A DNA stretch of 64,000 nucleotides, from assembly GCA_965208125.1 (NCBI GenBank), contig OZ242320.1:2144001-2208000 (forward strand), read 5' to 3'. The position numbers and the translations under genes are program-made. How positions within the stretch are numbered: the stretch's first letter is position 1; each line of letters opens with the position of its first letter. The notes beneath the pieces were generated by a model. It was not told the origin of the DNA, did no database searches, and was given only the letters and a program-made list of their open reading frames with translations. Source of the stretch: Candidatus Latescibacterota bacterium. Its GTDB lineage: Bacteria; Latescibacterota; UBA2968. Positions 3,852-27,062 of this stretch are shown here, piece by piece.

Positions 3852-4553
3852 TTAATTTAAGTTGAATTTGATACCGGCACCGATATCAATGAGGTTAAAG
3901 GGGTATGTTTTTTCTATACCCCATACGAGGAAGGGACGCAATTCTCCCATTACGATATTGTAGCGCGCGCGCACATCTAACGCGGCTTTGTCTCCCAGGC
4001 CGATTTGAACCCCGCCGCCAAAGCTGGCACTGAAAGCTGTGCGTGTGTCATTAACGGGTTCCAGGAGGATGTTTGGATCGGGAGGCGCACCGGCACCCGA
4101 AGGCGTCTGACCGGCAAAGATCAGACCGCTGACTTTGCTGGCGTAATCGTGCAGGCCCGCGCCAAATGTGAGATAGAGCGTTGTGCCCTGGCCGAATCCT
4201 TTTTCTTGCATTGCAAATAGCCAGTTGGCGTGGATGCTGTTGATGGTCATGTTGGCTTCGGCCTGCGGGCTGGTGTATTCTTTGCCGTCGCTGAAGCTGA
4301 AGGTGCGCGTTTCAAGGCTGCCGTCGTTGAAGCGGGCATGGTGAAATTCCACCTCGACCATCTTGCGCTTGTGATAGATATAATGCGCCGTACCCCCAAA
4401 CTTGGTGCCGCTGTCGTACATGTCTTTGAAGTTGAATAGAGGAATGTAGAAGTCAAAAAAGCCGCCAGCGCCGAAAGCACCTTCTCGTGCGGTTGCCTGC
4501 GCATTTGGCAACAGGGCCGCAACGCATAAAATCAAGAGTAATTTTTTCAACAA
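3852..4553 (-). CDS. Outer-membrane beta-barrel protein
   Basis: Signal peptide; amphipathic strands (FGGGVQIGL, DVRARYN, IGAGIKFN); TTG start with AGGAG RBS. Confidence 0.7.
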   Translation of the reverse strand: MLKKLLLILCVAALLPNAQATAREGAFGAGGFFDFYIPLFNFKDMYDSGTKFGGTAHYIYHKRKMVEVEFHHARFNDGSLETRTFSFSDGKEYTSPQAEANMTINSIHANWLFAMQEKGFGQGTTLYLTFGAGLHDYASKVSGLIFAGQTPSGAGAPPDPNILLEPVNDTRTAFSASFGGGVQIGLGDKAALDVRARYNIVMGELRPFLVWGIEKTYPFNLIDIGAGIKFNLN

Positions 4554-13904: not shown

Positions 13905-15533
13905 ATGTCTGGTATAGATGTGGGACAGATTGGATGGAAGGCTGAGAGTAAGACGGGTGTTGTGGCAGCGGGTGGCGCAGGTGCTGTGGCAGCGGGTGTT
14001 GAGATTCTGGATAGGGGGGGCAATGCGGCCGATGCAGCCGCGGCGACTATTTTTGCGCTGAATGTTACGGATCACGGCGCGTGTTCGATTGGCGGGGAGG
14101 TTCCGCTTCTTATTTATGATGCTGGGACTTCGGAGGTTAAGGCATTGAGCGGGCAGGGACGGGCACCGCGGTCTCAGGAGGCGATTGACTGGTATATGAA
14201 GAATGGTATTCCGGGGGATGGGGATATGAAGATGGCGCCCGTGCCTTCGGTTGTGGATTTGTGTATTACGACGCTCAGGCGATACGGTACGATGTCGTTT
14301 GAAGAGATTATCGCGCCTGTGCTTGCTCTGCTCGATGCGGGGGAGGATGACTGGCATCCCAATCTTGCGAGGACGTTGCGAAAACTCGTTGAGGAGGAGC
14401 ATCTCGCGTCGGGGAGCCGGGAGGAGAAGTTGCAGGCTGCCGCGGATCGCTTTTACGGGCGGAATAAGTACCGCAATGATATTGCCGAGGAGCTTGAGGC
14501 TTTTTATGTCGCAAAGGGGGGCTTTTTGCGTCGGGAAGATCTGGCGACGCATATTACGACGATTGAAGATCCAGTTACGGTTTCTTATCGGGGGTACACG
14601 GTTTGCAAATGTGGACCGTGGACGCAGGGGCCTTATTTGTGTCAGGCACTGCGCTTGCTCGAGAAGTTCGATGTCAAAGCGATGGGCCATCTTTCGGCGG
14701 ATTATATTCACGTTGTTACGGAAGCGATCAAACTGGCGATGGCGGACCGCGATGCGTATTATGCCGATCCCGATTTTTCGGGTGTGCCTCTGGGGGGATT
14801 GCTTTCCGATGCGTACACGGATTTGCGCGTGCCACTTATCGATATGCAAGCGGCTTCTCTGGAGGCGCGTCCGGGTGATCCGTATCTGATGCAGCCGGTT
14901 AAAGAAGGCGGTGTGTTCCGTCCTGGCATTGGGGGGACGACGACCTGTGTGGTGGCGGATCGCTGGGGCAATGTGGTCGCGGCAACGCCGAGTGCCAATG
15001 TTCACCGTCCCACGATTGATGGGGGAAGTATGGGGGTTACTTATGGGAATCGTTTGCGGAGTCTGAATACGACGGCGGGGCATCCGAATTGTATCCAGCC
15101 GGGGAAGCGCCCGCGCATTACGCTGACGCCTACGCTGGTTCTGAAAGATGGGCGACCGATTCTCGGGATTAGCGTTGCGGGTGGGGATTTGCAAGATCAG
15201 ACGACGTTGAATTTGTTGCTGGATTTTGTCGAGTTTGGGATTATGCCGGAGGAGGCTGTTACTGCGCCCCGTTTTGCCACAGCGCATCACAACGATTCTT
15301 TTGATCCCAATCCCATCCGCGAGCAGACGTTCAAACAGGCGGGGTCGCTGACGCTGAATGATGCGATAGATCAGGATGTGCAGGACGATCTCGCCAGTCG
15401 GGGACATCAGGTTGAGGCGAAAGCATCTAATATTGCGACGCCTGTTATGGTTTATGTGGATCGGGAAGAGGGCGTATATTACGCCGCAGGCGATCCCAAA
15501 GCGGGGCGTCACGCCGCGGGGTTGGAGTTTTGA
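13905..15533 (+). CDS. Gamma-glutamyltransferase family protein
   Basis: GGNAADAA, EAIKLAMADRD, TT nucleophile (GTTTCVVADRWGN), PGKRPRITL; start after AAGGAG. Confidence 0.9.
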   Translation: MSGIDVGQIGWKAESKTGVVAAGGAGAVAAGVEILDRGGNAADAAAATIFALNVTDHGACSIGGEVPLLIYDAGTSEVKALSGQGRAPRSQEAIDWYMKNGIPGDGDMKMAPVPSVVDLCITTLRRYGTMSFEEIIAPVLALLDAGEDDWHPNLARTLRKLVEEEHLASGSREEKLQAAADRFYGRNKYRNDIAEELEAFYVAKGGFLRREDLATHITTIEDPVTVSYRGYTVCKCGPWTQGPYLCQALRLLEKFDVKAMGHLSADYIHVVTEAIKLAMADRDAYYADPDFSGVPLGGLLSDAYTDLRVPLIDMQAASLEARPGDPYLMQPVKEGGVFRPGIGGTTTCVVADRWGNVVAATPSANVHRPTIDGGSMGVTYGNRLRSLNTTAGHPNCIQPGKRPRITLTPTLVLKDGRPILGISVAGGDLQDQTTLNLLLDFVEFGIMPEEAVTAPRFATAHHNDSFDPNPIREQTFKQAGSLTLNDAIDQDVQDDLASRGHQVEAKASNIATPVMVYVDREEGVYYAAGDPKAGRHAAGLEF

Positions 15534-15628
15534 CTTTTTTATACCTCTTGATCATGGCATGGTTAAGGGCTATATTAAAATGGTGCTAATTTCCTGTTTT
15601 ATCAGAACAATTTGAGTGAAAAATTATA

Positions 15629-16057
15629 TTGAATACCGAAGCTGCAAAATCCCTATCTTATGCAAAGCAACATCTGGAACGCGTCCGCGCAGCATGGGAC
15701 GATCCTACTGATTGGGCAGACCTTACAATTTATGGGTTTTACTGTCTTGAAGCGGCTATTGTCGCGGCAGGCTTACATATAGGTCTGGATTTCCAAAGAT
15801 CCCATACAGATAAAGCTGAAATAGCGCGTAAGCTTTTTCAATCTCATGGATTGCCAGATGTTGCCGATTTTCTTTGGGATCTGAATACGGCTCGTAAAGC
15901 TTCGGCTTATGGCGATGTAGATTTTCCAGATTTGGATGCACAGGACGTGGCTGATAAACTTGAAGAATATGTGGAAGCAGTTTCTGCATTATTGGGAGAT
16001 GGATCAAATGATCAGGATGATCAGAAATCTGACGAGCAATCGTCCGAAGAACATTGA
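15629..16057 (+). CDS. HEPN-domain protein
   Basis: FYCLEAAIVA, SH, RKASAYGD (Rx4Y); lower-GC segment. Confidence 0.7.
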   Translation: MNTEAAKSLSYAKQHLERVRAAWDDPTDWADLTIYGFYCLEAAIVAAGLHIGLDFQRSHTDKAEIARKLFQSHGLPDVADFLWDLNTARKASAYGDVDFPDLDAQDVADKLEEYVEAVSALLGDGSNDQDDQKSDEQSSEEH

Positions 16058-16691
16058 TTCATTGCGCTTTCTCAAAACGATTGATAAATGGCCCAGTACC
16101 TATGCGAAAGAGTGGGTCGAAAATTTTGTACCCAGATTGTGCAGGCAACCCGATATCTGGGCGATTGTGATTTTTGGTTCTGTTATTCGCCAAAATGTCA
16201 AATACTGCCTGGATGTTGACTTGTTGATTATTTATCAGAATGATAGGCCAAATTTTGCGTCTCCCCCCCTTGATGTTGATATCAGGTCATATTGTCGAGA
16301 GGATGTAGAGTCTCTTATTACAGAGGGGCACGAGGTTTTGGGATGGACAATTCGTTTTGGAAAGGTTCTTTACGAGAAAGATAAGTATTGGTCAAACTTG
16401 TGTGACAAATGGAAAGATCATCTTCCTTCGCCCTCTGCAAAAGTGGCGGATAAACGTGCCGAAAGAGCGAAGCAGCTTTTTGAGGATATTAAAGTGATTG
16501 GTGACGAGGATGCAGCAGAGGAACAATTTATCGCGATGTTGACACAAATGGCGCGTGCATGTCTAATCAGGTCAGGTATTTATCCCGCATCCCGTCCTGA
16601 ACTACCAGATCAGTTAAAATCTGTTGGGAAATACTGTCTTGCCTCTCAATTGGAAGAGGTTTTACAGAAACGCCGTGAATTGAAAGTATGA
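16008..16691 (+). CDS. Minimal nucleotidyltransferase with C-terminal helical, HEPN-like domain
   Basis: IVIFGSVIR...DVDLLII (GS/DxD); start uncertain. Confidence 0.7.
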   Translation: MIRMIRNLTSNRPKNIDSLRFLKTIDKWPSTYAKEWVENFVPRLCRQPDIWAIVIFGSVIRQNVKYCLDVDLLIIYQNDRPNFASPPLDVDIRSYCREDVESLITEGHEVLGWTIRFGKVLYEKDKYWSNLCDKWKDHLPSPSAKVADKRAERAKQLFEDIKVIGDEDAAEEQFIAMLTQMARACLIRSGIYPASRPELPDQLKSVGKYCLASQLEEVLQKRRELKV

Positions 16692-16697
16692 TCTCAT

Positions 16698-19619
16698 GTG
16701 AGTAATCTTTCCAGAAAATCCTTCCCCATAACGCAGCATATCACCGCGTTGATATGTTTTTTTTTGTCGGGGTTTGCCGGGCTGGTTTACGAAGTTGCCT
16801 GGATACGGCAGGCCGCGCTTTTGTTTGGGTCAACGACCTTTGCGGTGAGCGCAGTTCTATCTGTTTTTTTTCTGGGTCTGGCTATTGGGGCGTATCTTTT
16901 TGGGCGCGTTGGGCAACGGACTTCCCGGCCGCTCATTCTTTTTGGATATGTCGAGATTGGTCTGGGTTTTCTGGCTCTGATCAGTCCTTATGCTTTTGAT
17001 TTTGCAGATTTTCTCTATGGCATCGCGTATAGAATGTTGAGCGATGCTCCCTTCCTGCGGTTCACTACCCGTCTTTTTCTGGTTGCGCTCGTCGTTCTGC
17101 CGCCCACTGTTCTGATGGGCGGTACGCTTCCCCTTTTTTGCCGTCAGTATTCGCGCAATAGCGGTAGAATTGCGCGGGCTGTTGGTCTGCTCTACGGTGT
17201 CAATACCCTGGGAGCTGCGTTGGGGTGCGCGGCTGCGGGGTTTGTTTTTTTGCCGGATCTGGGTTTGCGCGGTGCGATCTATATTGGTGTGGTATGCAAT
17301 ATTCTGAGTGGTGTTGTTGTTCGCGCGCTGTCTATTGCCCGGGAGGATGTGTTTTCCGATTCGACGCAGTCCCGCGGTGTGAGTGGCAAGCTCCCGCGGA
17401 GTGGGGTTGTATTTGTTCTGTTTTTTGCGATTGGTTTTGTGGCTCTGGGCGCCGAGGTGCTGTGGGTGCGGTATCTGGGGCTTCTGATCAATAATACGGT
17501 TTATACTTATACGCTGGCGTTGAGCGTTGTGCTGGTTGGGCTGGTTCTGGGGAGTTTTCTCGCTGCTCAGTTTTCGGATAAGACGGAGATGCGGGCGTAT
17601 TATTTGGGCGCGTTTCAGATTGCGACGGGTCTTGTTGTGCTGGCGCTTTTGATGTTTTCGCCGGAGACATGGCGAGGATTGGGCAGTGATTTGTATATTT
17701 ATTTTGCAGTGCTTTTGCCTCCTGCTGTGTTGGGTGGTGCGGCTTTTCCGCTTGCGATTCGTCTGGTGATTCGCAATGCGGAATATACGTCTGGGATGGC
17801 GGGTAATCTGATTGCGGTGAATACGCTTGGGGGTATTCTCGGGTCTCTTTTGATCGGTTTTTTGGGGATTCCCTTTTTTGGTCTTGAGAAGAGTCTGTTT
17901 TTTATTACGGGCGCGAATCTCGCTATTGGCATTTCTGCATGGTTTTTGCTGGATCGAAGATATCGCGTGTTCAAATATGCGGCTGCGCTGGTTGCCGTTC
18001 TGGTCTATTTGGGTATTCCGTATTTTTCGCAGACGCGAGTGCCTGCGGATTTTATCGGTGAGGGGCGGGATCTCGTGGCGTTCCGAGAGGGTTATGGCGC
18101 GAATATGGCGGTTGTGCGGCGGGAGGATGATCTGGAACTGGAGATTGACCGCTGGTGGCAGGGTGGGAGTAAGAAGAACCATCAGATTATGGCGGCGCAT
18201 GTGCCGATGCTTTTGCATCCGAATCCCAAACGGGTCGTTGTTGTGGGGGCTGGTACGGGGCAGACGATTAGCCGTTTTCTGATGTATCCCATTGATTATC
18301 TGGCGTGTGTGGATATCGAGCCTGCGCTTTTTCCTTTTGTTGAGGAATATTTTGAGACGGAGTGGATGGGGGATCCGCGCGTGGAGATTATCGCTGAAGA
18401 TGGGCGCAATTTTCTGCGCCATACTGCGGCGACTTATGATATTATTTCGCTTGAGCTTGGCGAGGTGTCCCGCCCGGGTGTGGCGTTTTTTTATACGGTT
18501 GATTTCTATGCGCGCGTTCGAGAACGCCTGACGTCAGGTGGGTATCTGGTGCAGTTTGTGCCGCTGCGCTTTCTGACGGAGGACCAGTTCCGCGGTGTTG
18601 TGCGCAGTTTTTTGACTGTTTTTCCGCAGAGTGTTTTGTGGTATAATACGTCTGAGCTTTTGCTTATTGGCTCGGGGGATGATGCGTTTAATATTGCTCA
18701 GGGGAAACTGTTGGGTGTGGATGAGGAGATTCATGCGGATCTTCAATATAGCCACTGGGGCGGGGTGGCGTATTATCTCAATCAGCCGCACGTTTTTTGG
18801 GGTGGTTATTTGATGGGGGCTGAGGGGCTGGCTTCTGCGACGGTTGAGGCGGATACGTATTGGGATGATCGACCGATTCTGGACTACGAGTCGGTTCAGA
18901 ATGCGGAGAGCGATGGGCTTGCGTTTGCAGAGTTGCTGTATAAATATCGGGATTCTATTGATGCGTTGATGCCGGGTGAGGTGGATGCGCGTATTGCGGC
19001 GGTTCAGAGTAAAAATTTAAGGGAGATTGCCGCGCGCGTTTTTGTCCGTGAGGCGTCGGATTTGATTCCCGCGCGAGAACACAGACGGATTGCTACGCTT
19101 TGTGCCGAGGCGATTCGCCGACTTCCCGAATATCTGGAGGCGCATCGCATGTTCGCCGATGCGATGATGCAACTGGGGCGTTTGCAGGATGCCGAAAGAC
19201 ACTATACGCGGGTTTTGGAACTCGATCCGGCAGATGCACGCGCGCTGAATGGACGGGCTGTGGCGTTTCACCGCGCGGGACGGCTTGAAGATGCGGTTCG
19301 CTGCTATGAGAATGCGATTCGCTACCATCCGAATAATGCGCTGTCGCAAAATGGTATCGCTATGGCGCTTCACAGGCTGGGACGTTTTGATGAAGCGATT
19401 CAGCACTACAAGGATGCGATTCGCTTGCATCCGGATAGGCCCGATACGTATGCCGACCTGGGCATGGCGCTGGCACAGGCGGGGAGGTTGCGAGAGGCTG
19501 TTCCCTATTTGGAGAAGGCGCTCGCACTGCGGTCGAATTTTACACGGGTGCAGCGGGTTCTCGCGCAGATACGAAGAGAAGTGGAGAGTGAGAATAGTGA
19601 AGGAGGAAGTGTGAAATGA
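16698..19619 (+). CDS. Fused membrane domain / spermidine synthase-like domain / TPR protein
   Basis: SGFAGLVYEVAW membrane domain; VVGAGTG and EDGRNFL SAM-fold motifs; C-terminal TPRs. Confidence 0.88.
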   Translation: MSNLSRKSFPITQHITALICFFLSGFAGLVYEVAWIRQAALLFGSTTFAVSAVLSVFFLGLAIGAYLFGRVGQRTSRPLILFGYVEIGLGFLALISPYAFDFADFLYGIAYRMLSDAPFLRFTTRLFLVALVVLPPTVLMGGTLPLFCRQYSRNSGRIARAVGLLYGVNTLGAALGCAAAGFVFLPDLGLRGAIYIGVVCNILSGVVVRALSIAREDVFSDSTQSRGVSGKLPRSGVVFVLFFAIGFVALGAEVLWVRYLGLLINNTVYTYTLALSVVLVGLVLGSFLAAQFSDKTEMRAYYLGAFQIATGLVVLALLMFSPETWRGLGSDLYIYFAVLLPPAVLGGAAFPLAIRLVIRNAEYTSGMAGNLIAVNTLGGILGSLLIGFLGIPFFGLEKSLFFITGANLAIGISAWFLLDRRYRVFKYAAALVAVLVYLGIPYFSQTRVPADFIGEGRDLVAFREGYGANMAVVRREDDLELEIDRWWQGGSKKNHQIMAAHVPMLLHPNPKRVVVVGAGTGQTISRFLMYPIDYLACVDIEPALFPFVEEYFETEWMGDPRVEIIAEDGRNFLRHTAATYDIISLELGEVSRPGVAFFYTVDFYARVRERLTSGGYLVQFVPLRFLTEDQFRGVVRSFLTVFPQSVLWYNTSELLLIGSGDDAFNIAQGKLLGVDEEIHADLQYSHWGGVAYYLNQPHVFWGGYLMGAEGLASATVEADTYWDDRPILDYESVQNAESDGLAFAELLYKYRDSIDALMPGEVDARIAAVQSKNLREIAARVFVREASDLIPAREHRRIATLCAEAIRRLPEYLEAHRMFADAMMQLGRLQDAERHYTRVLELDPADARALNGRAVAFHRAGRLEDAVRCYENAIRYHPNNALSQNGIAMALHRLGRFDEAIQHYKDAIRLHPDRPDTYADLGMALAQAGRLREAVPYLEKALALRSNFTRVQRVLAQIRREVESENSEGGSVK

Positions 19620-20675: not shown

Positions 20676-21992
20676 ATGAAGTCTCTTTCCGAACTTGAAG
20701 AGCGGGTGGCTGGTGCTCAGCCGGGTAATGTTATTACGCTGGCCGATGGCGTGTATGATGGTGAAAGGTGCAAGCTCGCGGCGAGGGGGACTGCGGATCA
20801 GCCGATTGTTATCCGGGCGGAGAATATGGGGCGGGCGGTTATAAAGGCGCCGTTGTTGTTGGTGGGGGATTATATCAATCTTGTGGGGTTTCACTTTGTG
20901 GCGAAGGGGAGTGTGGAGATTCGGGGACGGGGTTGTCGCATAAGTCGTTGTGTGATGACGGATGTTCAGGTTGGCAAGTGGATACGGGTGAGGGCAGAGA
21001 GCCGGGAGGTTGAGATTGATCGCTGTCGGTTTGAGAATAAGACCAATAATCTCGAGGAGACGCGCGGCTGTCAGTTGATGCAGATTTACGTTCGGAATCA
21101 GGGCGAGAGGCACCGTGTTCATCACAATTTTTTTGTGGATGTTCCGGATGGCAAGGAGAGCAATGGGTACGAGACGCTTCAGCTTATTACAGAGGGGAAT
21201 CCGTACGATCCGGAGCCGGGCGATTGTGAGACGGTGATTGAGTACAATCTTTTTGAGCGTTGTAGTGGGGAGGCGGAGATTATTTCTGTGAAGTCCAATG
21301 GCAATATTCTCCGCAGAAATACGTTTCGCGATTGCCGGGGGGCGCTGGTGCTTCGGCATGGGGATGGCAATGTGGTGTCTGAGAATTTCTTTTTTGGCGA
21401 GGGCGAACGCCGAGCGGGCGGTGTGCGCTTGCAGGGGACAGATCAGGTTGTTGTGAATAATTTGTTCCACTCGCTCAATGCGTTTGGCGTGGGTATGATG
21501 GATGGGGCATCGGATGATCTCTATGTGCGGGTGGAGCGTGCGCTGGTTGCGTTTAATACGTTTGTGGGATGTAGCCCGGCGATGGTTGTGGGGCTAAATC
21601 ACAGCAGGTATCCCAATGGTACGGCGCCTGAAGATTGCGTGATTGCGAATAATGCTTTTGTGAGATCCGATGGGACTGTGCGGCTGGTGCAGGACGATGA
21701 GCCAGTGGATTGGACATGGGAAGGGAATGTGACGGATGGGGATTTGGGTATGCCCGCTCGGGATGGGATAAAAACTGGGCGGGTCGATGTGGCGTATCTG
21801 CCCAATGGGGTTGTTGCGCCAGCAGAGTCCAGTGGTCTGATTGGTAATGCGGAGGGGCGTTATCCAGAGATTACGACAGATGTTCTGGGGCATTCACGAG
21901 GCGAGCGAAAGACGATTGGTTGCGTTGAGTTTCCAACGGGGATGGAGGACGGGGGTCCTTTAACCGCGGCAGATGTGGGGCCTGGGTGGTAG
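20676..21992 (+). CDS. Polysaccharide lyase family 6 (chondroitinase B / alginate lyase)
   Basis: NGYETLQ, GEAEIISVKS, LRHGDGN and GGVR beta-helix motifs. Confidence 0.85.
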   Translation: MKSLSELEERVAGAQPGNVITLADGVYDGERCKLAARGTADQPIVIRAENMGRAVIKAPLLLVGDYINLVGFHFVAKGSVEIRGRGCRISRCVMTDVQVGKWIRVRAESREVEIDRCRFENKTNNLEETRGCQLMQIYVRNQGERHRVHHNFFVDVPDGKESNGYETLQLITEGNPYDPEPGDCETVIEYNLFERCSGEAEIISVKSNGNILRRNTFRDCRGALVLRHGDGNVVSENFFFGEGERRAGGVRLQGTDQVVVNNLFHSLNAFGVGMMDGASDDLYVRVERALVAFNTFVGCSPAMVVGLNHSRYPNGTAPEDCVIANNAFVRSDGTVRLVQDDEPVDWTWEGNVTDGDLGMPARDGIKTGRVDVAYLPNGVVAPAESSGLIGNAEGRYPEITTDVLGHSRGERKTIGCVEFPTGMEDGGPLTAADVGPGW

Positions 21993-21997
21993 GGATG

Positions 21998-22300
21998 TTA
22001 ATCAATAGAGACGACGAGGTTCAAATTTTCTTTTCGCAACATATCTTGTAGTGCAAGTTGAACCCAAAAGCTTTCTGGCTCGCCGAGTTGTCTGGCAATT
22101 TTGGCTGCTCTGCTGGGGCTTGGGATTCTTCTTTCTTTTTCTATATCACAAAGACTTTGAGGCGAAATGCCCAAAAAATCAGCAAATGCTCTCTGGCTCT
22201 TTTCTTCTCCTGTTCGATAGCTGGCCAAGGCATTTCCAAATGTGAGACATCCAAAGTCTCTCTCCAGTTCAGAAGTTCCGTATTGTGCTTTAGTAATCAT
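21998..22300 (-). CDS. XRE/HigA-like HTH antitoxin
   Basis: LTFGNAL...SQRAFADFLGISPQSLCDIEKERR; GAGGAG RBS. Confidence 0.8.
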   Translation of the reverse strand: MITKAQYGTSELERDFGCLTFGNALASYRTGEEKSQRAFADFLGISPQSLCDIEKERRIPSPSRAAKIARQLGEPESFWVQLALQDMLRKENLNLVVSID

Positions 22301-22327
22301 GTTTATTGATCTCCTCAATTCCCAAAT

Positions 22328-22348
22328 CATACGTCAAAATGACGTATG
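22328..22348. promoter_or_regulatory. Perfect palindrome, probable HigA-like operator
   Basis: catacgtca-aaa-tgacgtatg just upstream of the HTH gene. Confidence 0.6.
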
Positions 22349-22371
22349 CATCAAGTTCAACCTGCCTTGAT

Positions 22372-22415
22372 ATGTTTTGAAATGCGGTTGACAATATCGC
22401 GGTTGTTGCTACATT
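22372..22415 (+). repeat. Promoter-like direct repeat, copy 1
   Basis: atgttttgaaatgcggTTGACAatatcgcggttgttgcTACATT. Confidence 0.85.
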
Positions 22416-22474
22416 TTTTGGCGGTCAGAAATCGTTTTTATACTGAATAGTATGGATATAGTAGGAGATAGCGC

Positions 22475-22687
22475 GTGGAAAAATTATCACGGATTACTTT
22501 CGATCCCGAGGTCATGGGTGGCAAGGCATGTATTCGGGGACTGCGGGTGACGGTTGGAACTGTCGTGGGGCTTCTGGCAGCCAGTCGGTCACATGAGGAA
22601 ATATTAAAAGCCTATCCTTATCTTGAACCAGAAGATATCGATCAAGCTCTGGCTTATGCGCGGGGCGAAGAAATACTTTCGAGATGA
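22475..22687 (+). CDS. DUF433 antitoxin-like protein
   Basis: RITFDPEVMGGKACIRGLRVTV...AYPYLEPEDI; GTG start after AGGAG. Confidence 0.85.
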   Translation: MEKLSRITFDPEVMGGKACIRGLRVTVGTVVGLLAASRSHEEILKAYPYLEPEDIDQALAYARGEEILSR

Positions 22688-22707
22688 GCGGGCTAAGGAG
22701 TCAAGCC

Positions 22708-22935
22708 ATGGTGTGCGATATATGTGGGAAGGCGGGGGTGCGCCAGCGTTACGTTTCACGTAGTTATGGGAAAGGCGCATCTCTTCTTGTTATCGAAGGT
22801 GTGCCTGTGATGCGTTGTCCCCATTGTGGCGAGAGCTATTTGACAGCACAAACCCTGCATGAAGTTGAGCGCATTAAGCGCGAGCGAGAAGGCATTGCGA
22901 CTAAACGCACCGTAGCGGTTGCTGCATTTGTATAA
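22708..22935 (+). CDS. YgiT-type zinc finger (MqsA-like antitoxin)
   Basis: CDIC...IEGVPVMRCPHCGESY; AAGGAG RBS. Confidence 0.85.
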   Translation: MVCDICGKAGVRQRYVSRSYGKGASLLVIEGVPVMRCPHCGESYLTAQTLHEVERIKREREGIATKRTVAVAAFV

Positions 22936-23047
22936 TTCGCAGTGAGCTACATTTCAACCTCTGGTAAGCACTGAGGTATGTTTTAAAATGTGAAGAATAC
23001 AAGCGTCAGTCCATCGCACCAACCTATTCTGGACTTGACCCGTTTTG

Positions 23048-23155
23048 GATGCTGTTGCCGAATTGGTCGAGAAGGATCTGTGGTTGTAAAAACGGCTGTT
23101 TGTAGCCTGAATACAAGCTCTTTATGGACAGAATTCGGAATTCGGCAACAGCATC
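23048..23155. mobile_element. 108-bp MITE nested in the IS3 left end
   Basis: Perfect 17-bp TIRs gatgctgttgccgaatt / aattcggcaacagcatc. Target duplication gttttg (or 8-bp cgttttgg if the ends are trimmed by 1 bp). Confidence 0.88.
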
Positions 23156-23198
23156 GTTTTGGTGGGTACCTTATCAGTAATCAGAAAGGAGCCCCACT

Positions 23199-23510
23199 AT
23201 GCCCCCAACACGTCCACCTTATCCAGCCGAGTTGAAGCGCCAAATCATCGAGCTTGTGCGCGCTGGCCGCTCTCCAGCCGAGTTGGCCAGAGAGTTCGAG
23301 CCAACCGCTCAGACGATCCAAAACTGGATTCGCCAAGCTGATCGAGATGAGGGACTTCGAGAAGACGGCCTGACCAGTGATGAACGAGAAGAGTTGCGTC
23401 GTCTTCGACGCGAGAACAAGCAGTTGCGCATCGAGCGCGAGATACTCTCAAAAGCAGCGGCCTGGTTCGCAGCGGAGACCGACGCGATCCCCAGCAAATC
23501 TTCGCGTTAA
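23199..23510 (+). CDS. IS3 transposase OrfA
   Basis: YPAELKRQIIELVRAGRS...ELRRLRRENKQLRIEREILSKAAAWFA. Confidence 0.9.
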   Translation: MPPTRPPYPAELKRQIIELVRAGRSPAELAREFEPTAQTIQNWIRQADRDEGLREDGLTSDEREELRRLRRENKQLRIEREILSKAAAWFAAETDAIPSKSSR

Positions 23511-24359
23511 TAAAAGCGCATCAGGCACTTTGGCCTATCGCCACGCAATGCCGAGTCCTGGGTGTCTCCCTCAGTGGGTATTATGCTTGGCGAGCACGTC
23601 CACCCTCTAAACGAGCAAAGGTTGATGTGGACCTGAAGAAGCATATCAAAGCCTTTCATACCCGATCAGATGGTACTTATGGTGCCCCTCGCATCTTTAA
23701 AGACCTGATGGATGTGGGCATCCTTGTAGGCAAGAAGCGCGTAGCACGCCTGATGCGTGAGATGGGCATTTGTGGCATCAGCCGCAGAAAGAGCACGCAA
23801 ACGACTCGTAAGGCGCAACAGTCTGATAAGGCTCCCGATCTGGTAAAGCGAGACTTTAATGTGCCAACGATCAATAAACTCTGGGTGGCTGACATCACCT
23901 ATGTACCTACCTGGTCTGGCTTCTTGTATCGAACGTGTTGTCATGGATGCCTTCTCTGGCCGCGTCGTGGGTTGGGCAATGGCGAGCCACTTGCAAAGTG
24001 AGTTAGTCTTATCGGCTTTAAATATGGCCCTTTACCAGCGTCGCCCACAAAGTGTGATCCACCATTCTGATCAGGGAGCGCAATATACCTCGATAGCATT
24101 TGGAAAGCGTTGCCGTGAAGCTGGCGTGCGTCCCTCAATGGGGGCTGCTGGCGACTGCTATGACAACGCCTTATGCGAGAGCTTCTTCGCCACCTTGGAG
24201 TGTGAACTGATCAATCGCCGGTCCTTCCGTACGCACAAGGAAGCGCGGTTAGCTATCTTCTCCTACATTGAAGGATGGTATAATCCGCATCGCAGGCATT
24301 CTTCCATTGCCTACCATGCCCCGATAGCTTATGAAAAACTGCATCTATCACAGGCTTGA
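23497..24359 (+). pseudogene. IS3 transposase OrfB (DDE) with a frameshift near 23930
   Basis: YGAPRI and WVADITY in one frame; VVMDAFS, HHSDQGAQY and DNALCESFF in another. Confidence 0.85.
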
Positions 24360-24400
24360 TACACAAGCCCTAAACTCTCCACCGAAGCGGGGTAACTCCA

Positions 24401-24600
24401 CTTCTTGGAGCCTCGCTGTCTCGTCTCGAATATTTTGGTTTTTCAACAAAAGGTCGGCTTCTGTTTTTTTCAGCCCCTGTACCTCTTTATCAAATCGCGC
24501 TACTTCGGATTCAATATCGATAATTGGCTGATATTTTTTCAGATCTTTTTTGGCTGCCAAAAGTGCCTTCAAAATCAGAACGCACAAATAATCAAATCTT
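24401..24600 (-). pseudogene. Coiled-coil gene fragment truncated by IS3 (possibly DUF4041-like N-terminus)
   Basis: KKYQPIIDIESEVARFDKEV...RLQE runs into the IRR; family assignment tentative. Confidence 0.35.
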
Positions 24601-24629
24601 TTCCGGGAGTTTCCATATTACGCGCCGGA

Positions 24630-24658
24630 ATGTTTTGAAATGCGGTTGACAATATCGC
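24630..24658 (+). repeat. Promoter-like direct repeat, copy 2
   Basis: 29 bp identical to 22372-22400. Confidence 0.85.
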
Positions 24659-25082
24659 CTCGTTGTGACACCTTTTGTTTTTTGGTGTAATAGATGTTGC
24701 GCAGTACTTCAGATAAGGCATTACAAAACGCACTCTCATAAAGTGCTATCAATTAAAGCCATTATGCACAGCGCGTGAGTCCGTCTCGCAGCGGATGTCC
24801 TTGTGGTACCCCAACAGTGAAGGCCATTGTATAGCGTATTATCACAGAAACGATTTGTGCTGTGCCAGCCCCTCGGCGTTTGAGAGCGGCATTTTTTGCC
24901 TACTTTTTGTTGCTGATGACAAAAAGTAGGTCGCCGAAGGCAGAACAAAGATAAAAGAGGTGGAATTATCACTAACGCTTTCGACAAGATTCCCAATCTT
25001 TTCACAAGCGTGCGTAACGTTATGATCAGGTACAATGCTCTGATGTGTATGTGCTGGCTCTCACCCGTACAAAGGCAATATC

Positions 25083-25673
25083 ATGACGACGGTTTTTATT
25101 GGTGGTTCTCGTGGCATCACACGCTTGAACGACACCATCAGGTACACAGCGGATAACATCATGCGTCAGCGTTTTGCTATTGTCATCGGCGATGCAAATG
25201 GTGCTGATAAGGCGGTACAGAGCTATTTCGCAGAAAAAGCATATCGGGATGTTATCGTCTATTGTATGGGTGACCACTGTCGGAACAATGTGGGAAGTTG
25301 GCCAGTAGAACAGATATATGCAGATAATCATATAAAGGACTTTGCATACTACACAACGAAGGATGCAAAGATGGCTCAAGTAGCGTCCTATGGCTTCATG
25401 ATCTGGGATGGAAAGAGCAAGGGAACCCTGAACAATATTCTCAACTTATTGCAGCTACAGAAGAAGATCCTGGTCTATTTTTCACCCGATAAATCTTGTT
25501 ATAAGCTCAAATCATCCAAAGATCTTACTGCACTCTTAAAAAAGTGCAGCATCGATATGAGAGAAATGTTCAAACTTCGGAACTTGCGAAACAGGAAGCA
25601 TGTGATTAAAGGCGATCCCGAGGATCTGGTTCATATCACCTGGGACAAGGCGGTGAATATTGATCTACCTTGA
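25083..25673 (+). CDS. SLOG-superfamily protein with a foreign, antitoxin-like C-terminal tail
   Basis: FIGGSR, GDANGAD, WDGKSKGT; tail VIKGDPEDLVHITW. Confidence 0.7.
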   Translation: MTTVFIGGSRGITRLNDTIRYTADNIMRQRFAIVIGDANGADKAVQSYFAEKAYRDVIVYCMGDHCRNNVGSWPVEQIYADNHIKDFAYYTTKDAKMAQVASYGFMIWDGKSKGTLNNILNLLQLQKKILVYFSPDKSCYKLKSSKDLTALLKKCSIDMREMFKLRNLRNRKHVIKGDPEDLVHITWDKAVNIDLP

Positions 25674-25695
25674 TGTTTTGAAATGCGGTTGACAA
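25673..25695 (+). repeat. Promoter-like direct repeat, copy 3
   Basis: atgttttgaaatgcggttgacaa, 23 bp identical, abutting the stop codon. Confidence 0.85.
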
Positions 25696-25737
25696 AAGCG
25701 TATGTGTTAAATTATTGACACGTACGCTTTTTTTTTA
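25694..25737 (+). terminator. Terminator-like hairpin
   Basis: aaaagcgtatgtgttaa-atta-ttgacacgtacgctttt followed by a T run. Confidence 0.6.
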
Positions 25738-25777
25738 AGTTGCGCATCCCTGAAATAAATATCCTCAACAACCGAAT

Positions 25778-25809
25778 TGCGGTTGACAATCTCGCTTTGT
25801 TGCTACATT
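25778..25809 (+). promoter_or_regulatory. Promoter-like repeat, copy 4; likely native promoter of the dehydratase operon
   Basis: tgcggTTGACAatctcgctttgttgcTACATT, matching the right half of copy 1. Confidence 0.7.
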
Positions 25810-25853
25810 GTTTGTTTTTGAGGATTATTCAAATACCAGACAAAGGACAACAC

Positions 25854-27062
25854 ATGAAAATCAAATCCGTCGAAGTCGTTCGCGTTGAACGGCCAGATGC
25901 AAGCCAGGTCTCAACGGGTTCTGGTACGACGCTGGCTGCTTCAACAGGTGCAGCTCCGAGGACAAAAGGGTATCGAAAGGCGTGGCCCTCGCAGATAGAG
26001 GTAGCAAACCCGATGTCTAAGTTCCCGCGGTTTAAGGCGCGGCGGCAGCTTTACGGTGCCAGACAGTGGCCCAGGTTCTCGGTTAAGGTGACTGCTGAAG
26101 ATGGGACATGGGGCCTCGGCACATCGGCGGGGCGCCCGGTTGCTATGGTGGTGGAAGATGCTTTCGCGCATATACTGGAAGGCGAGAGTTGTCTGGCAAT
26201 TGAAAAGTTGTGGGATATGATGTTTCGCGTGTCCAAATCTTTTGGGACTGTGGGGATTGCCTCGTTGGCGATTAGTGCTGTGGATCTGGCGCTTTGGGAT
26301 CTGGCGGGGAAATTGCAGGGCAAGCCCGTTTATGAGCTTCTGGGCGGTCCGGCGCGCGATCGTTTGTTTGTGTATGCGACGGGGGATGATGTGGATTGGT
26401 ACAAGGAGTTGGGGTTTCGGGCGTTTAAGTTGCCCTGTCAATACGGGCCGGTTGATGGGTTGTGGGGATTGGGGGAGAACGAGAGGCGAATAGCCGAGGT
26501 CCGCGAGTTGATCGGCGATGATTGCGATCTCATGCTCGATTGTTATATGGCTTTTGATGTGGAATATACCGCGCGTCTGGCCAATCGCCTGCGTCCTTAT
26601 AATCTGCGCTGGATGGAAGAGTGCCTGATTCCAGAAGATGTTGGGGGGCATATTGAACTCAAGAAACGCCTGCCGTGGTTGACGCTTGCCAGTGGCGAGC
26701 ATTTTTACACGCCGTATCCCTATCAGTTGATGATCGAAAATCGGTGTCTCGATATCCTCCAGCCCGATATTCAGTGGGTGGGGGGTTTGACTGCTTGTGT
26801 CAAAATTTGTAATATGGCTGCGGCGGCGGGTCTGGAGGTTTGTTTGCACGGTGGGGGACGCGATGCGTACGGTCAGCATTTGAGCTGGGCAATGCCCAAT
26901 ACGCCCTGGTGTGAGTATTTTATCGGTTCAGATCCGGGGGTACCGCTTGTAGAAGTGGCGCAACCCGGCGCGCGCGTGCCGCGCGATAGCTATCTGGAGT
27001 TTGCGCCGAGTGGTCCGGGTTTTGATCTGGGGATTGAAGAGGATTGGTTGGTGCCGTTTTAA
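25854..27062 (+). CDS. Mandelate racemase/enolase-superfamily dehydratase (L-rhamnonate dehydratase-like)
   Basis: [35 protein letters not shown]. Confidence 0.88.

Follow-up and report, generated by a model that had tools for sequence, protein, structure and literature searches.

Putative mobile promoters (PMPs), as defined by Nijveen, Matus-Garcia and van Passel (2012; PMC3575422), are sequences of at least 50 nt and at least 80% identity that lie upstream of non-paralogous genes in one genome. Here we describe a promoter-like block of ~55-60 nt in a 64,000-nt stretch of DNA from a Candidatus Latescibacterota bacterium (contig OZ242320.1, positions 2,144,001 to 2,208,000; hereafter the window, meaning the whole stretch analysed), where it recurs in an array of small gene cassettes between a PL6-type lyase gene and a sugar-acid dehydratase operon. 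As with PMPs (PMC3575422), highly similar sequence over some 50 nt or longer stands before non-homologous genes, both within and between related genomes, and there is neither a known mobile element attached nor a known means of movement. Unlike PMPs, the block is tied to mini-cassettes of toxin-antitoxin (TA) type, comes with a matching terminator module and is clustered in tandem in a hotspot. We consider, with a probability of roughly 0.55, that it is a putative mobile promoter carried by TA mini-cassettes, and that these lie in a hotspot flanked by core genes and are shuffled by recombination between blocks and by insertion sequence (IS) activity. If so, the locus would be a clean natural case of promoter reuse packaging unrelated TA genes as self-sufficient units, the portable promoter also serving, in a phylum without cultured members, an operon for housekeeping catabolism. 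It would also provide a marker for finding accessory mini-cassettes and a concrete candidate promoter for Latescibacterota, for which, to our knowledge, no genetics exists.

The array also resembles the core defence hotspots described by Johnson et al. (2023; PMC10250203) and for ANME-1 (PMC13385816), which, in the available portions of both papers, are core-flanked, always occupied intervals holding different defence, TA and mobile-element genes in each genome. Going by the same portions, the interval here is far smaller (~2 to >10 kb) and made up mostly of one- or two-gene TA-type units, and a repeated promoter block punctuating such units is not mentioned in them. Nor do titles and opening lines of abstracts on mobile promoters, on TA cassettes and hotspots or on Latescibacter TA systems contain a description of the block. 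Sedentary chromosomal integrons share with the array the tandem arrangement of small, unrelated and often TA-type cassettes, a recurring short sequence and variable content. Unlike in integrons, no IntI, attI or attC palindromes were found here, each cassette has what looks like its own promoter instead of Pc, the recurring sequence stands at the cassette 5' end, junctions fall at several positions, and most cassettes end in a terminator module.

A promoter-like block at the heads of small cassettes

The window holds four copies of the block, the third of them partial:

22369-22421, + strand: block copy 1, TTGACA-16 nt-TACATT, heading the DUF433-YgiT genes (profile 49.6 bits)
24626-24683, + strand: block copy 2, promoter-like, heading a 196-aa open reading frame (ORF) (profile 54.1 bits)
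25669-25740, + strand: copy 3, the block's opening ~31 nt running into a hairpin terminator (fold z -3.73)
25764-25824, + strand: block copy 4, putative resident promoter of the dehydratase operon (repeat and profile search)

An initial annotation of this DNA, made from its letters alone, had placed a 29-nt repeat at 22372 and 24630, a 23-nt version at 25673 and a variant at 25778. A repeat search of the window confirmed all four: 29 nt are identical (100%) between 22372-22400 and 24630-24658 (family D1), the copy at 25673-25701 is 90% identical with its first 23 nt exact, and the variant at 25767-25795 is 72% identical and keeps the core TGCGGTTGACAA at 25778. The accompanying remarks hold as well. 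Copy 3 does touch a stop codon, overlapping the TGA (25671-25673) of the 196-aa ORF at 25083-25673; the variant before the dehydratase does share its downstream half with copy 1 (22403-22420 and 25797-25814, 18 nt at 94%, family D6); and the -35/-10 spacers are indeed short, measuring 16 nt in copy 1 and 15 nt in the variant. Copy 2 and the variant have 46 nt in common at 80% (family D2). The 12-nt core, with at most one mismatch, occurs five times in 64 kb, four of these in the array, against a chance mean of 0.37 and none of 100 shuffles that reached five. The 23-mer with at most three mismatches occurs three times where 0.00 were expected, a count equalled in 0 of 100 shuffles.

A profile search revealed that the 29-nt repeat is a portion of a longer block of ~55-60 nt (copies 1, 2 and 4 as delimited above), in which an A/T-rich left part is followed by TTGACA, a spacer of 15-16 nt, the hexamer TACA(C/T)T and a run rich in T; over the remaining ~60 kb of the window the search returned no additional copy at E up to 1. 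Identical nucleotides number 42 of 49 between copies 1 and 2, 37 of 42 between copies 1 and 4, and 37 of 46 between copies 2 and 4; measured against the PMP figures of at least 80% over at least 50 nt, these pairs reach the identity and are 1-8 nt short in length. Between genomes, blastn matches of the block extend over 52-60 nt at 87-94%. Its best-kept columns are the -35 hexamer with its surroundings and the -10-like hexamer, and we regard the block as promoter-like, judging from its sequence and position. All 30 copies found here and in relatives are direct, each without an inverted partner, and copies 1 and 2 fold as single-stranded DNA no better than shuffles (z +0.65 and +0.38). Neither dyad symmetry nor terminal inverted repeats, target-site duplication or a palindromic fold was detected for the block (copies 1 and 2 folded; window inverted-repeat search), which, together with the low copy number, sets it apart from Correia elements, ERIC and REPIN, short dispersed repeats able to supply promoters to their neighbours.

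Relatives were sought with one degenerate 21-position pattern covering all four copies, which was scanned over 185,579 genomes, all of them species representatives; the DNA examined consisted only of the stretches within 10 kb of an exact match. The scan gave 19 loci (cited below by L numbers), 14 of which (12 distinct stretches) come from nine Latescibacterota metagenome-assembled genomes (MAGs), mostly at chromosome level. The remaining five are single matches in Lactobacillus, Bacteroidales, Prevotella and two Chloroflexota that have nothing in common beyond the pattern, and by our own estimate about four matches arise by chance. Exact-pattern matches number 1-3 per Latescibacterota genome. 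An nhmmer profile of the block returned, over the window and 12 distinct loci, 30 copies scoring 30 bits or more, three of the copy-3 type (fused to a terminator) and 27 of promoter type.

Each of the 27 promoter-type copies has a same-strand ORF downstream (the ORF search behind the blocks covered the same strand only; the strand of Pfam-supported genes comes from Pfam scans). In 22 of the 27 a Pfam-recognised gene is the first or second ORF, the families being DUF433, UPF0175, Phd/YefM, PIN, DUF2442, an MqsA-like finger and the MR_MLE dehydratase; three head the 196-aa ORF, and two an unknown ORF or remnant. Following comparative-genomic predictions, we take the DUF433, UPF0175-DUF3368 and DUF2442 families to be TA-associated. 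All eight syntenic loci have a block copy in front of the dehydratase. Outside the hotspot the block heads TA pairs at no fewer than three genomic places (L002, L009/L019 and L015/L016). It stands before Phd-PIN in L009 and L019, with an aldo-keto reductase alongside, and Phd-PIN is found in L016 too; in L015 it heads X-PIN, reading into a PALP enzyme gene, and in L016 a TA pair before the PALP gene. At an unrelated genomic place in L002, block and 196-aa ORF are followed by a DUF2442 gene. Hotspot cassettes recur elsewhere on the chromosome, namely the 196-aa cassette in L002 and a UPF0175 remnant in L016. The block is thus not confined to the hotspot, but in the stretches examined its copies are few and keep to cassette heads, so that it does not behave as a generic promoter. 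Plasmid and phage collections yielded no block match, only weak DUF433 coding similarity and 60 nt of a 296-nt insert described below.

Some of these outside loci deserve separate mention. At L015 9991-12249 the block-headed TA pair stops 13 nt before the PALP gene with no block between, and the PALP gene may be read from the cassette promoter. L016 is syntenic with L015 and has a second block in front of its PALP gene. DUF5069, Smr, Sir2 and DUF790 genes, possible defence systems, lie near the block at L002 11754-14909.

A variable interval between two core genes

The window region from 15 to 33 kb was compared with the retrieved loci by blastn. The interval is bounded, and its first cassette closed, by the following features:

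20676-21992, + strand: PL6/chondroitinase-B-like lyase, conserved left flank (Pfam Chondroitinas_B, E 8.8e-50)
22973-23030, + strand: T-module, terminator-type, its hairpin lost to an IS3 insertion (homology stops at 23030)
25854-27062, + strand: enolase-superfamily sugar-acid dehydratase, conserved right flank (MR_MLE_N, MR_MLE_C)

The same flanks are found at 87-96% identity in seven relatives: L004/5, L006, L010, L011, L012, L013 (where the retrieved locus stops short of the PL6 side) and L014. The lyase is syntenic at 87-93% in L004, L006, L010, L011, L012 and L014, and the dehydratase, which is followed in its operon by a BKACE enzyme, at 89-96%. Between the two, content differs in 8 of 8 genomes, no two being alike, and length ranges from ~2 kb (L014) to >10 kb (L013). 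The PL6-to-dehydratase interval is a true variable hotspot bounded by core genes, and since its content differs in all eight genomes while the flanks are kept, the expectation of different cargo across relatives was correct. The GC content is 46.9% in the island and 52.8% in the window.

Mobile elements are spread through the interval. IS3 is present in the window and in L012, at differing places and in differing orientations; an IS4/5 element truncates the lyase in L010, and L013 has a DDE_Tnp_1_4 element. TnpB elements are found in four of the eight genomes, in both orientations, intact in L004, L011 and L012 and as a remnant in L006. These are TnpB-only elements of ~1.2 kb (L011 2794-3995, L012 14471-15672, L006 5137-5496, L004 8586-9737), that of L006 being cut down to its last 120 codons; the window is without TnpB. 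Other contents include a DEAD-helicase with an MZB domain in L011, a WD40 protein in L013 and HTH+DUF4258 pairs in L004 and L013. The helicase, with its MrfA-type zinc-binding domain, lies among unknown neighbours at L011 4409-9206, and the WD40 protein, of 908 aa, occupies L013 13855-16581; each is a possible defence system.

Behind several cargoes lies a T-module, whose first ~18 nt are like the left end of the block and are followed by ~45 nt of its own and then a hairpin. Seven T-modules are intact (L004, L006, L011, L012, L013 and two in L016), each with a 13-pair hairpin and a T-run. Two of 24 predicted pairs show compensatory change, and as a structured RNA the T-module has good support for the terminator hairpin only, so the wider candidate was set aside. 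Because the next ~13 nt resemble copy 3, the T-module may be a decayed block in which the -35 hexamer was destroyed. Copy 3 has a hairpin stem at 25694-25731 followed by a T-run, and no free-standing promoter; in L010 and L014 the same hairpin terminator is present behind other genes with the block part missing. A typical unit thus consists of a presumably active block, cargo, a block-derived stretch and a terminator, so that the block's left part stands as a direct repeat on either side of the cargo.

At the dehydratase, the left flank of copy 4 is its own in the window, L006, L012 and L013, with ~40 conserved nt back to the terminator, and is present as a variant in L004 and L010; in L011 and L014 a left flank of cassette type is instead fused, within the block, to the right half of the resident copy. 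Upstream of copy 4, each cassette has its own block and its own terminator module. Because copy 4 keeps its own flank, cassettes mostly lie upstream of an intact resident promoter, which has not been interrupted at every arrival. Around the resident promoter lies a 12-nt inverted repeat (25761-25772/25814-25825; fold tests z -4.3 and -5.6), the outer arms of which are conserved in L006, L012 and L013, and a 6-5-6 palindrome at 25769-25785 overlaps its -35 region. These repeats look like a candidate operator of the sugar-acid operon.

Mosaic junctions and the possible routes of exchange

Junctions were read from copies that are orthologous on one side and non-orthologous on the other. Within the block or at its borders, at least five different points are seen at which homology stops: at its left edge (copies 1 and 2 compared with their orthologues; the copy 1 orthologue in L011 has the same flanks); ~10 nt in, where alpha- and beta-type left flanks part and where L011 and L014 have alpha-left/resident-right hybrids; after 18 nt, in the T-module; after ~31 nt, in copy 3; and at the right edge, where the same block stands on DUF433 or on 196-aa cargo. 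In copy 3, the join of block to hairpin terminator has 9 nt of microhomology, and in L016 the join between a T-module and part of the 196-aa gene falls on 8 nt common to both. Because the breaks lie at five positions at least, two of them microhomologous, a fixed crossover by a dedicated recombinase does not fit, and a single crossover point is not supported. Nor is there support for the idea of the initial annotation that insertion at one site regenerates the promoter each time: resident copy 4 is intact, and the cassettes sit upstream with their own blocks and terminators. UPF0175 cargo is 90-93% identical between loci and yet carries four clearly different block variants; blocks and cargo have therefore been exchanged independently.

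We propose that one lineage-specific promoter block of ~55-60 nt may have been reused before unrelated small operons, mostly of TA type, and equally before the resident sugar-acid dehydratase operon. The mini-cassette would consist of block, cargo and a terminator module that begins with a block-derived stretch, and such cassettes would gather with IS and TnpB elements between the PL6 lyase and the dehydratase. The array would be built and reshuffled by ordinary recombination, with block copies exchanging or converting one another, joins anchored by homology or microhomology, rearrangements linked to IS elements and swaps by way of the conserved flanks. The repeat family and its distribution, its place at cassette heads, the variable content and the mosaic junctions are direct observations; firing of the block as a promoter and movement of cargo by block recombination, without a dedicated enzyme, are inferred.

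A number of points weigh against this proposal. At 30-60 nt, the blocks offer RecA-type recombination little length to act on, every one of the eight T-module copies breaks after block base 18, and cassettes flanked by direct repeats are also expected from Campbell-type integration at a fixed core. In a sigma-70 scan copy 1 alone scored a good site, the spacers being short. No empty site or single-cassette difference was found among the eight syntenic loci, so that no insertion is directly readable. Copy numbers per genome are lower bounds, as 19 of the 30 copies fit the exact pattern and the remainder were seen as neighbours within 10 kb. Finally, the recombinase scan given below covered ~300 kb, made up of the window and the loci, and a recombinase encoded elsewhere could have been missed.

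The alternative that fares best, though we hold it clearly less probable than block-mediated exchange, is that the block is a shared regulatory region only. Genes with a common promoter or regulator need would each have it, DNA movement would not involve it, and turnover would come about via IS and TnpB elements and via allelic replacement through the flanks after DNA uptake. Conservation does peak at the -35 surroundings and the -10-like hexamer, and the palindrome and flanking inverted repeat of the resident copy are operator-like; different TA families, however, would not have one operator in common. Moreover, because similarity spans the whole block including the spacer, with sharp edges and unrelated neighbours, it points to copying over the full ~55-60 nt and not to convergence. 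With regard to turnover, the interval is rich in IS3, IS4/5, DDE_Tnp_1_4 and TnpB elements, and flanks of 87-96% identity offer ample homology for replacement, but TnpB ends do not coincide with blocks, and the hybrid blocks and block-derived cassette ends show breaks inside the block.

An integron-like mechanism seems unlikely to us. Here the block, or its first ~18 nt, would be the attachment site of a site-specific recombinase encoded elsewhere, acting in trans and cutting after ~18 nt; promoter-bearing circles, made of the block's right part, cargo and the block's left part, would integrate at any block and re-form promoters on both sides. Direct repeats of the block's left part do bound cassettes (copy 1 and the T-module at 22973; copy 2 and copy 3), and the break after base 18 is identical in the seven intact T-modules and the truncated window copy. 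However, the T-module may be a decayed block, and the full set of breaks is scattered over at least five positions, two microhomologous. Cassette-left/resident-right hybrid blocks stand directly before the dehydratase in L011 and L014, the same cassettes occur at unrelated loci, and no local mobility gene explains them; against this, no empty or single-cassette difference was seen, and copies 1 and 2 are without the dyad symmetry or fold typical of recombinase or attC sites.

The search for a recombinase tells in the same direction. Pfam scans of 55 window ORFs, of 116 ORFs in the seven syntenic loci and of 57 ORFs in other loci (together with the window, ~300 kb) contained no tyrosine or serine recombinase; the mobility genes found were transposases (IS3, IS4/5, DDE_Tnp_1_4) and TnpB only. 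Inverted-repeat and fold tests, run without a dedicated attC covariance model, gave no attC-like inverted repeat at the boundaries, where the only palindromes nearby are the terminator hairpin, the terminal inverted repeats of an insert resembling a miniature inverted-repeat transposable element (MITE) and the inverted repeat around copy 4. The attC core consensus is GTTRRRY, which GTTGACA does not match. Thus the initial annotation was right to report neither attC nor a local integrase, whereas the integron-like mechanism that it drew from the array finds no support, given these absences, the scattered junctions and cassettes that appear to carry their own promoters. Terminal inverted repeats around the cassettes were not found in the window repeat and inverted-repeat searches. 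Two other element types were considered and rejected: TnpB/IS605 ends as the origin of the block, as the element ends adjoin other sequence and the window has no TnpB, and a tRNA-targeted integrative island, as the window's tRNA genes lie only at 57954 and 61388, the nearest more than 30 kb off. Should a recombinase nevertheless be at work, this would be a new type of site-specific gene capture, an integron inside out with the promoter as its site, in which newcomer and resident operon would both stay expressed after integration and excised circles would keep an intact promoter.

That strain variants were mis-assembled at a common k-mer, or that a promoter consensus merely recurs, is very improbable: an identical stretch of 29 nt is short, and the genome was apparently derived from a metagenome, but no shuffle in 100 equalled the observed counts, and two independent chromosome-level MAGs are collinear with the window, L011 from the XRE gene through copy 1, DUF433 and YgiT to the T-module at 91% and L012 from copy 2 through the dehydratase at 94%.

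Cargo genes and other elements of the interval

The remaining features of the interval in the window are these:

21998-22330, - strand: XRE/HigA-like HTH protein (HTH_3, E 1.1e-09)
22475-22687, + strand: DUF433 protein, 70 aa (PF04255, E 1.3e-24)
22684-22935, + strand: YgiT/MqsA-type zinc-finger protein, 83 aa (TIGR03831, E 1.4e-13, above cut-off)
23031-24400, + strand: IS3-family element, degenerate, 1.37 kb (HTH_Tnp_1, HTH_21, rve; NF033516 transpos_IS3, E 1.4e-51)
23048-23155, no strand: MITE-like insert, 108 nt, with perfect 17-nt terminal inverted repeats (inverted pair I1)
24583-24625, no strand: upstream context of copy 2, common to L002 and L004, its first bases also to L010 and L014
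24694-24989, no strand: ~296-nt insert between copy 2 and the 196-aa ORF (blastn)
25083-25673, + strand: 196-aa protein, family unassigned (no Pfam or NCBIfam match)

The cargo is classed as TA-type by its Pfam and NCBIfam domains. That unrelated TA or defence-type cargo lies between the block copies, as first annotated, is borne out by the TA-type DUF433-YgiT pair and fails for the 1.37 kb between copies 1 and 2 that proved to be IS3. PADLOC made no defence-system assignment, with weak HTH-type matches for the XRE protein and a single weak match, at E 1.6e-4, for the 196-aa ORF, and Rfam returned nothing over 21500-26500 at E up to 1. The YgiT/MqsA-type protein also matches MqsA_antitoxin at E 4.4e-5, below cut-off, and the XRE protein has a weak HigA match (TIGR02607, E 1.1e-4), likewise below cut-off. 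In L006 a 117-aa ORF (3860-4213) lies upstream of the XRE gene on the same strand, of which the window keeps ~40 nt (22315-22356); because no more than this is left of the partner, the XRE/HigA-like gene looks like an orphaned antitoxin. The dehydratase is nearest to L-rhamnonate dehydratase (NF011968, E 1.3e-87, below the cut-off of that model).

The 196-aa ORF has copies of 90-91% identity in L002, L004 and L012. Compared with the PDB, its product gave one weak, chance-level match (E 0.15). In the Atlas, 27 of 30 feature matches are clusters without a common family (top score 0.97), and rank 24, with a score of 0.91, goes to a DprA-family set; a DprA/SLOG-like protein is a lead only. A divergent DUF433 gene lies 5' of the copy-2 upstream region in L010 and L014. 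The ~296-nt insert behind copy 2 is missing from the L002 cassette and present in L012, and 190 nt of it are found in L013. Its core at 24886-24945 (60 nt, with a perfect 12-bp hairpin) matches three unannotated phage records at 83-85%; as a structured RNA the insert was rejected, the fold tests being not significant (z -1.36 and -0.87).

In the IS3 copy, orfA lies at 23199-23510 and orfB is split into 23627-24001 and 23859-24359, and terminal inverted repeats can be read. L012 has an 89%-identical copy in another place and another orientation. The MITE-like insert sits inside the left end of the window element, and the L012 copy is without it, the match beginning at window position 23155. A second variable spot was seen at 15528-16730: the window and L011 have ~1.2 kb there, including a Polbeta-type nucleotidyltransferase ORF (15936-16691), in place of which L004 has ~80 nt and L014 ~3.7 kb.

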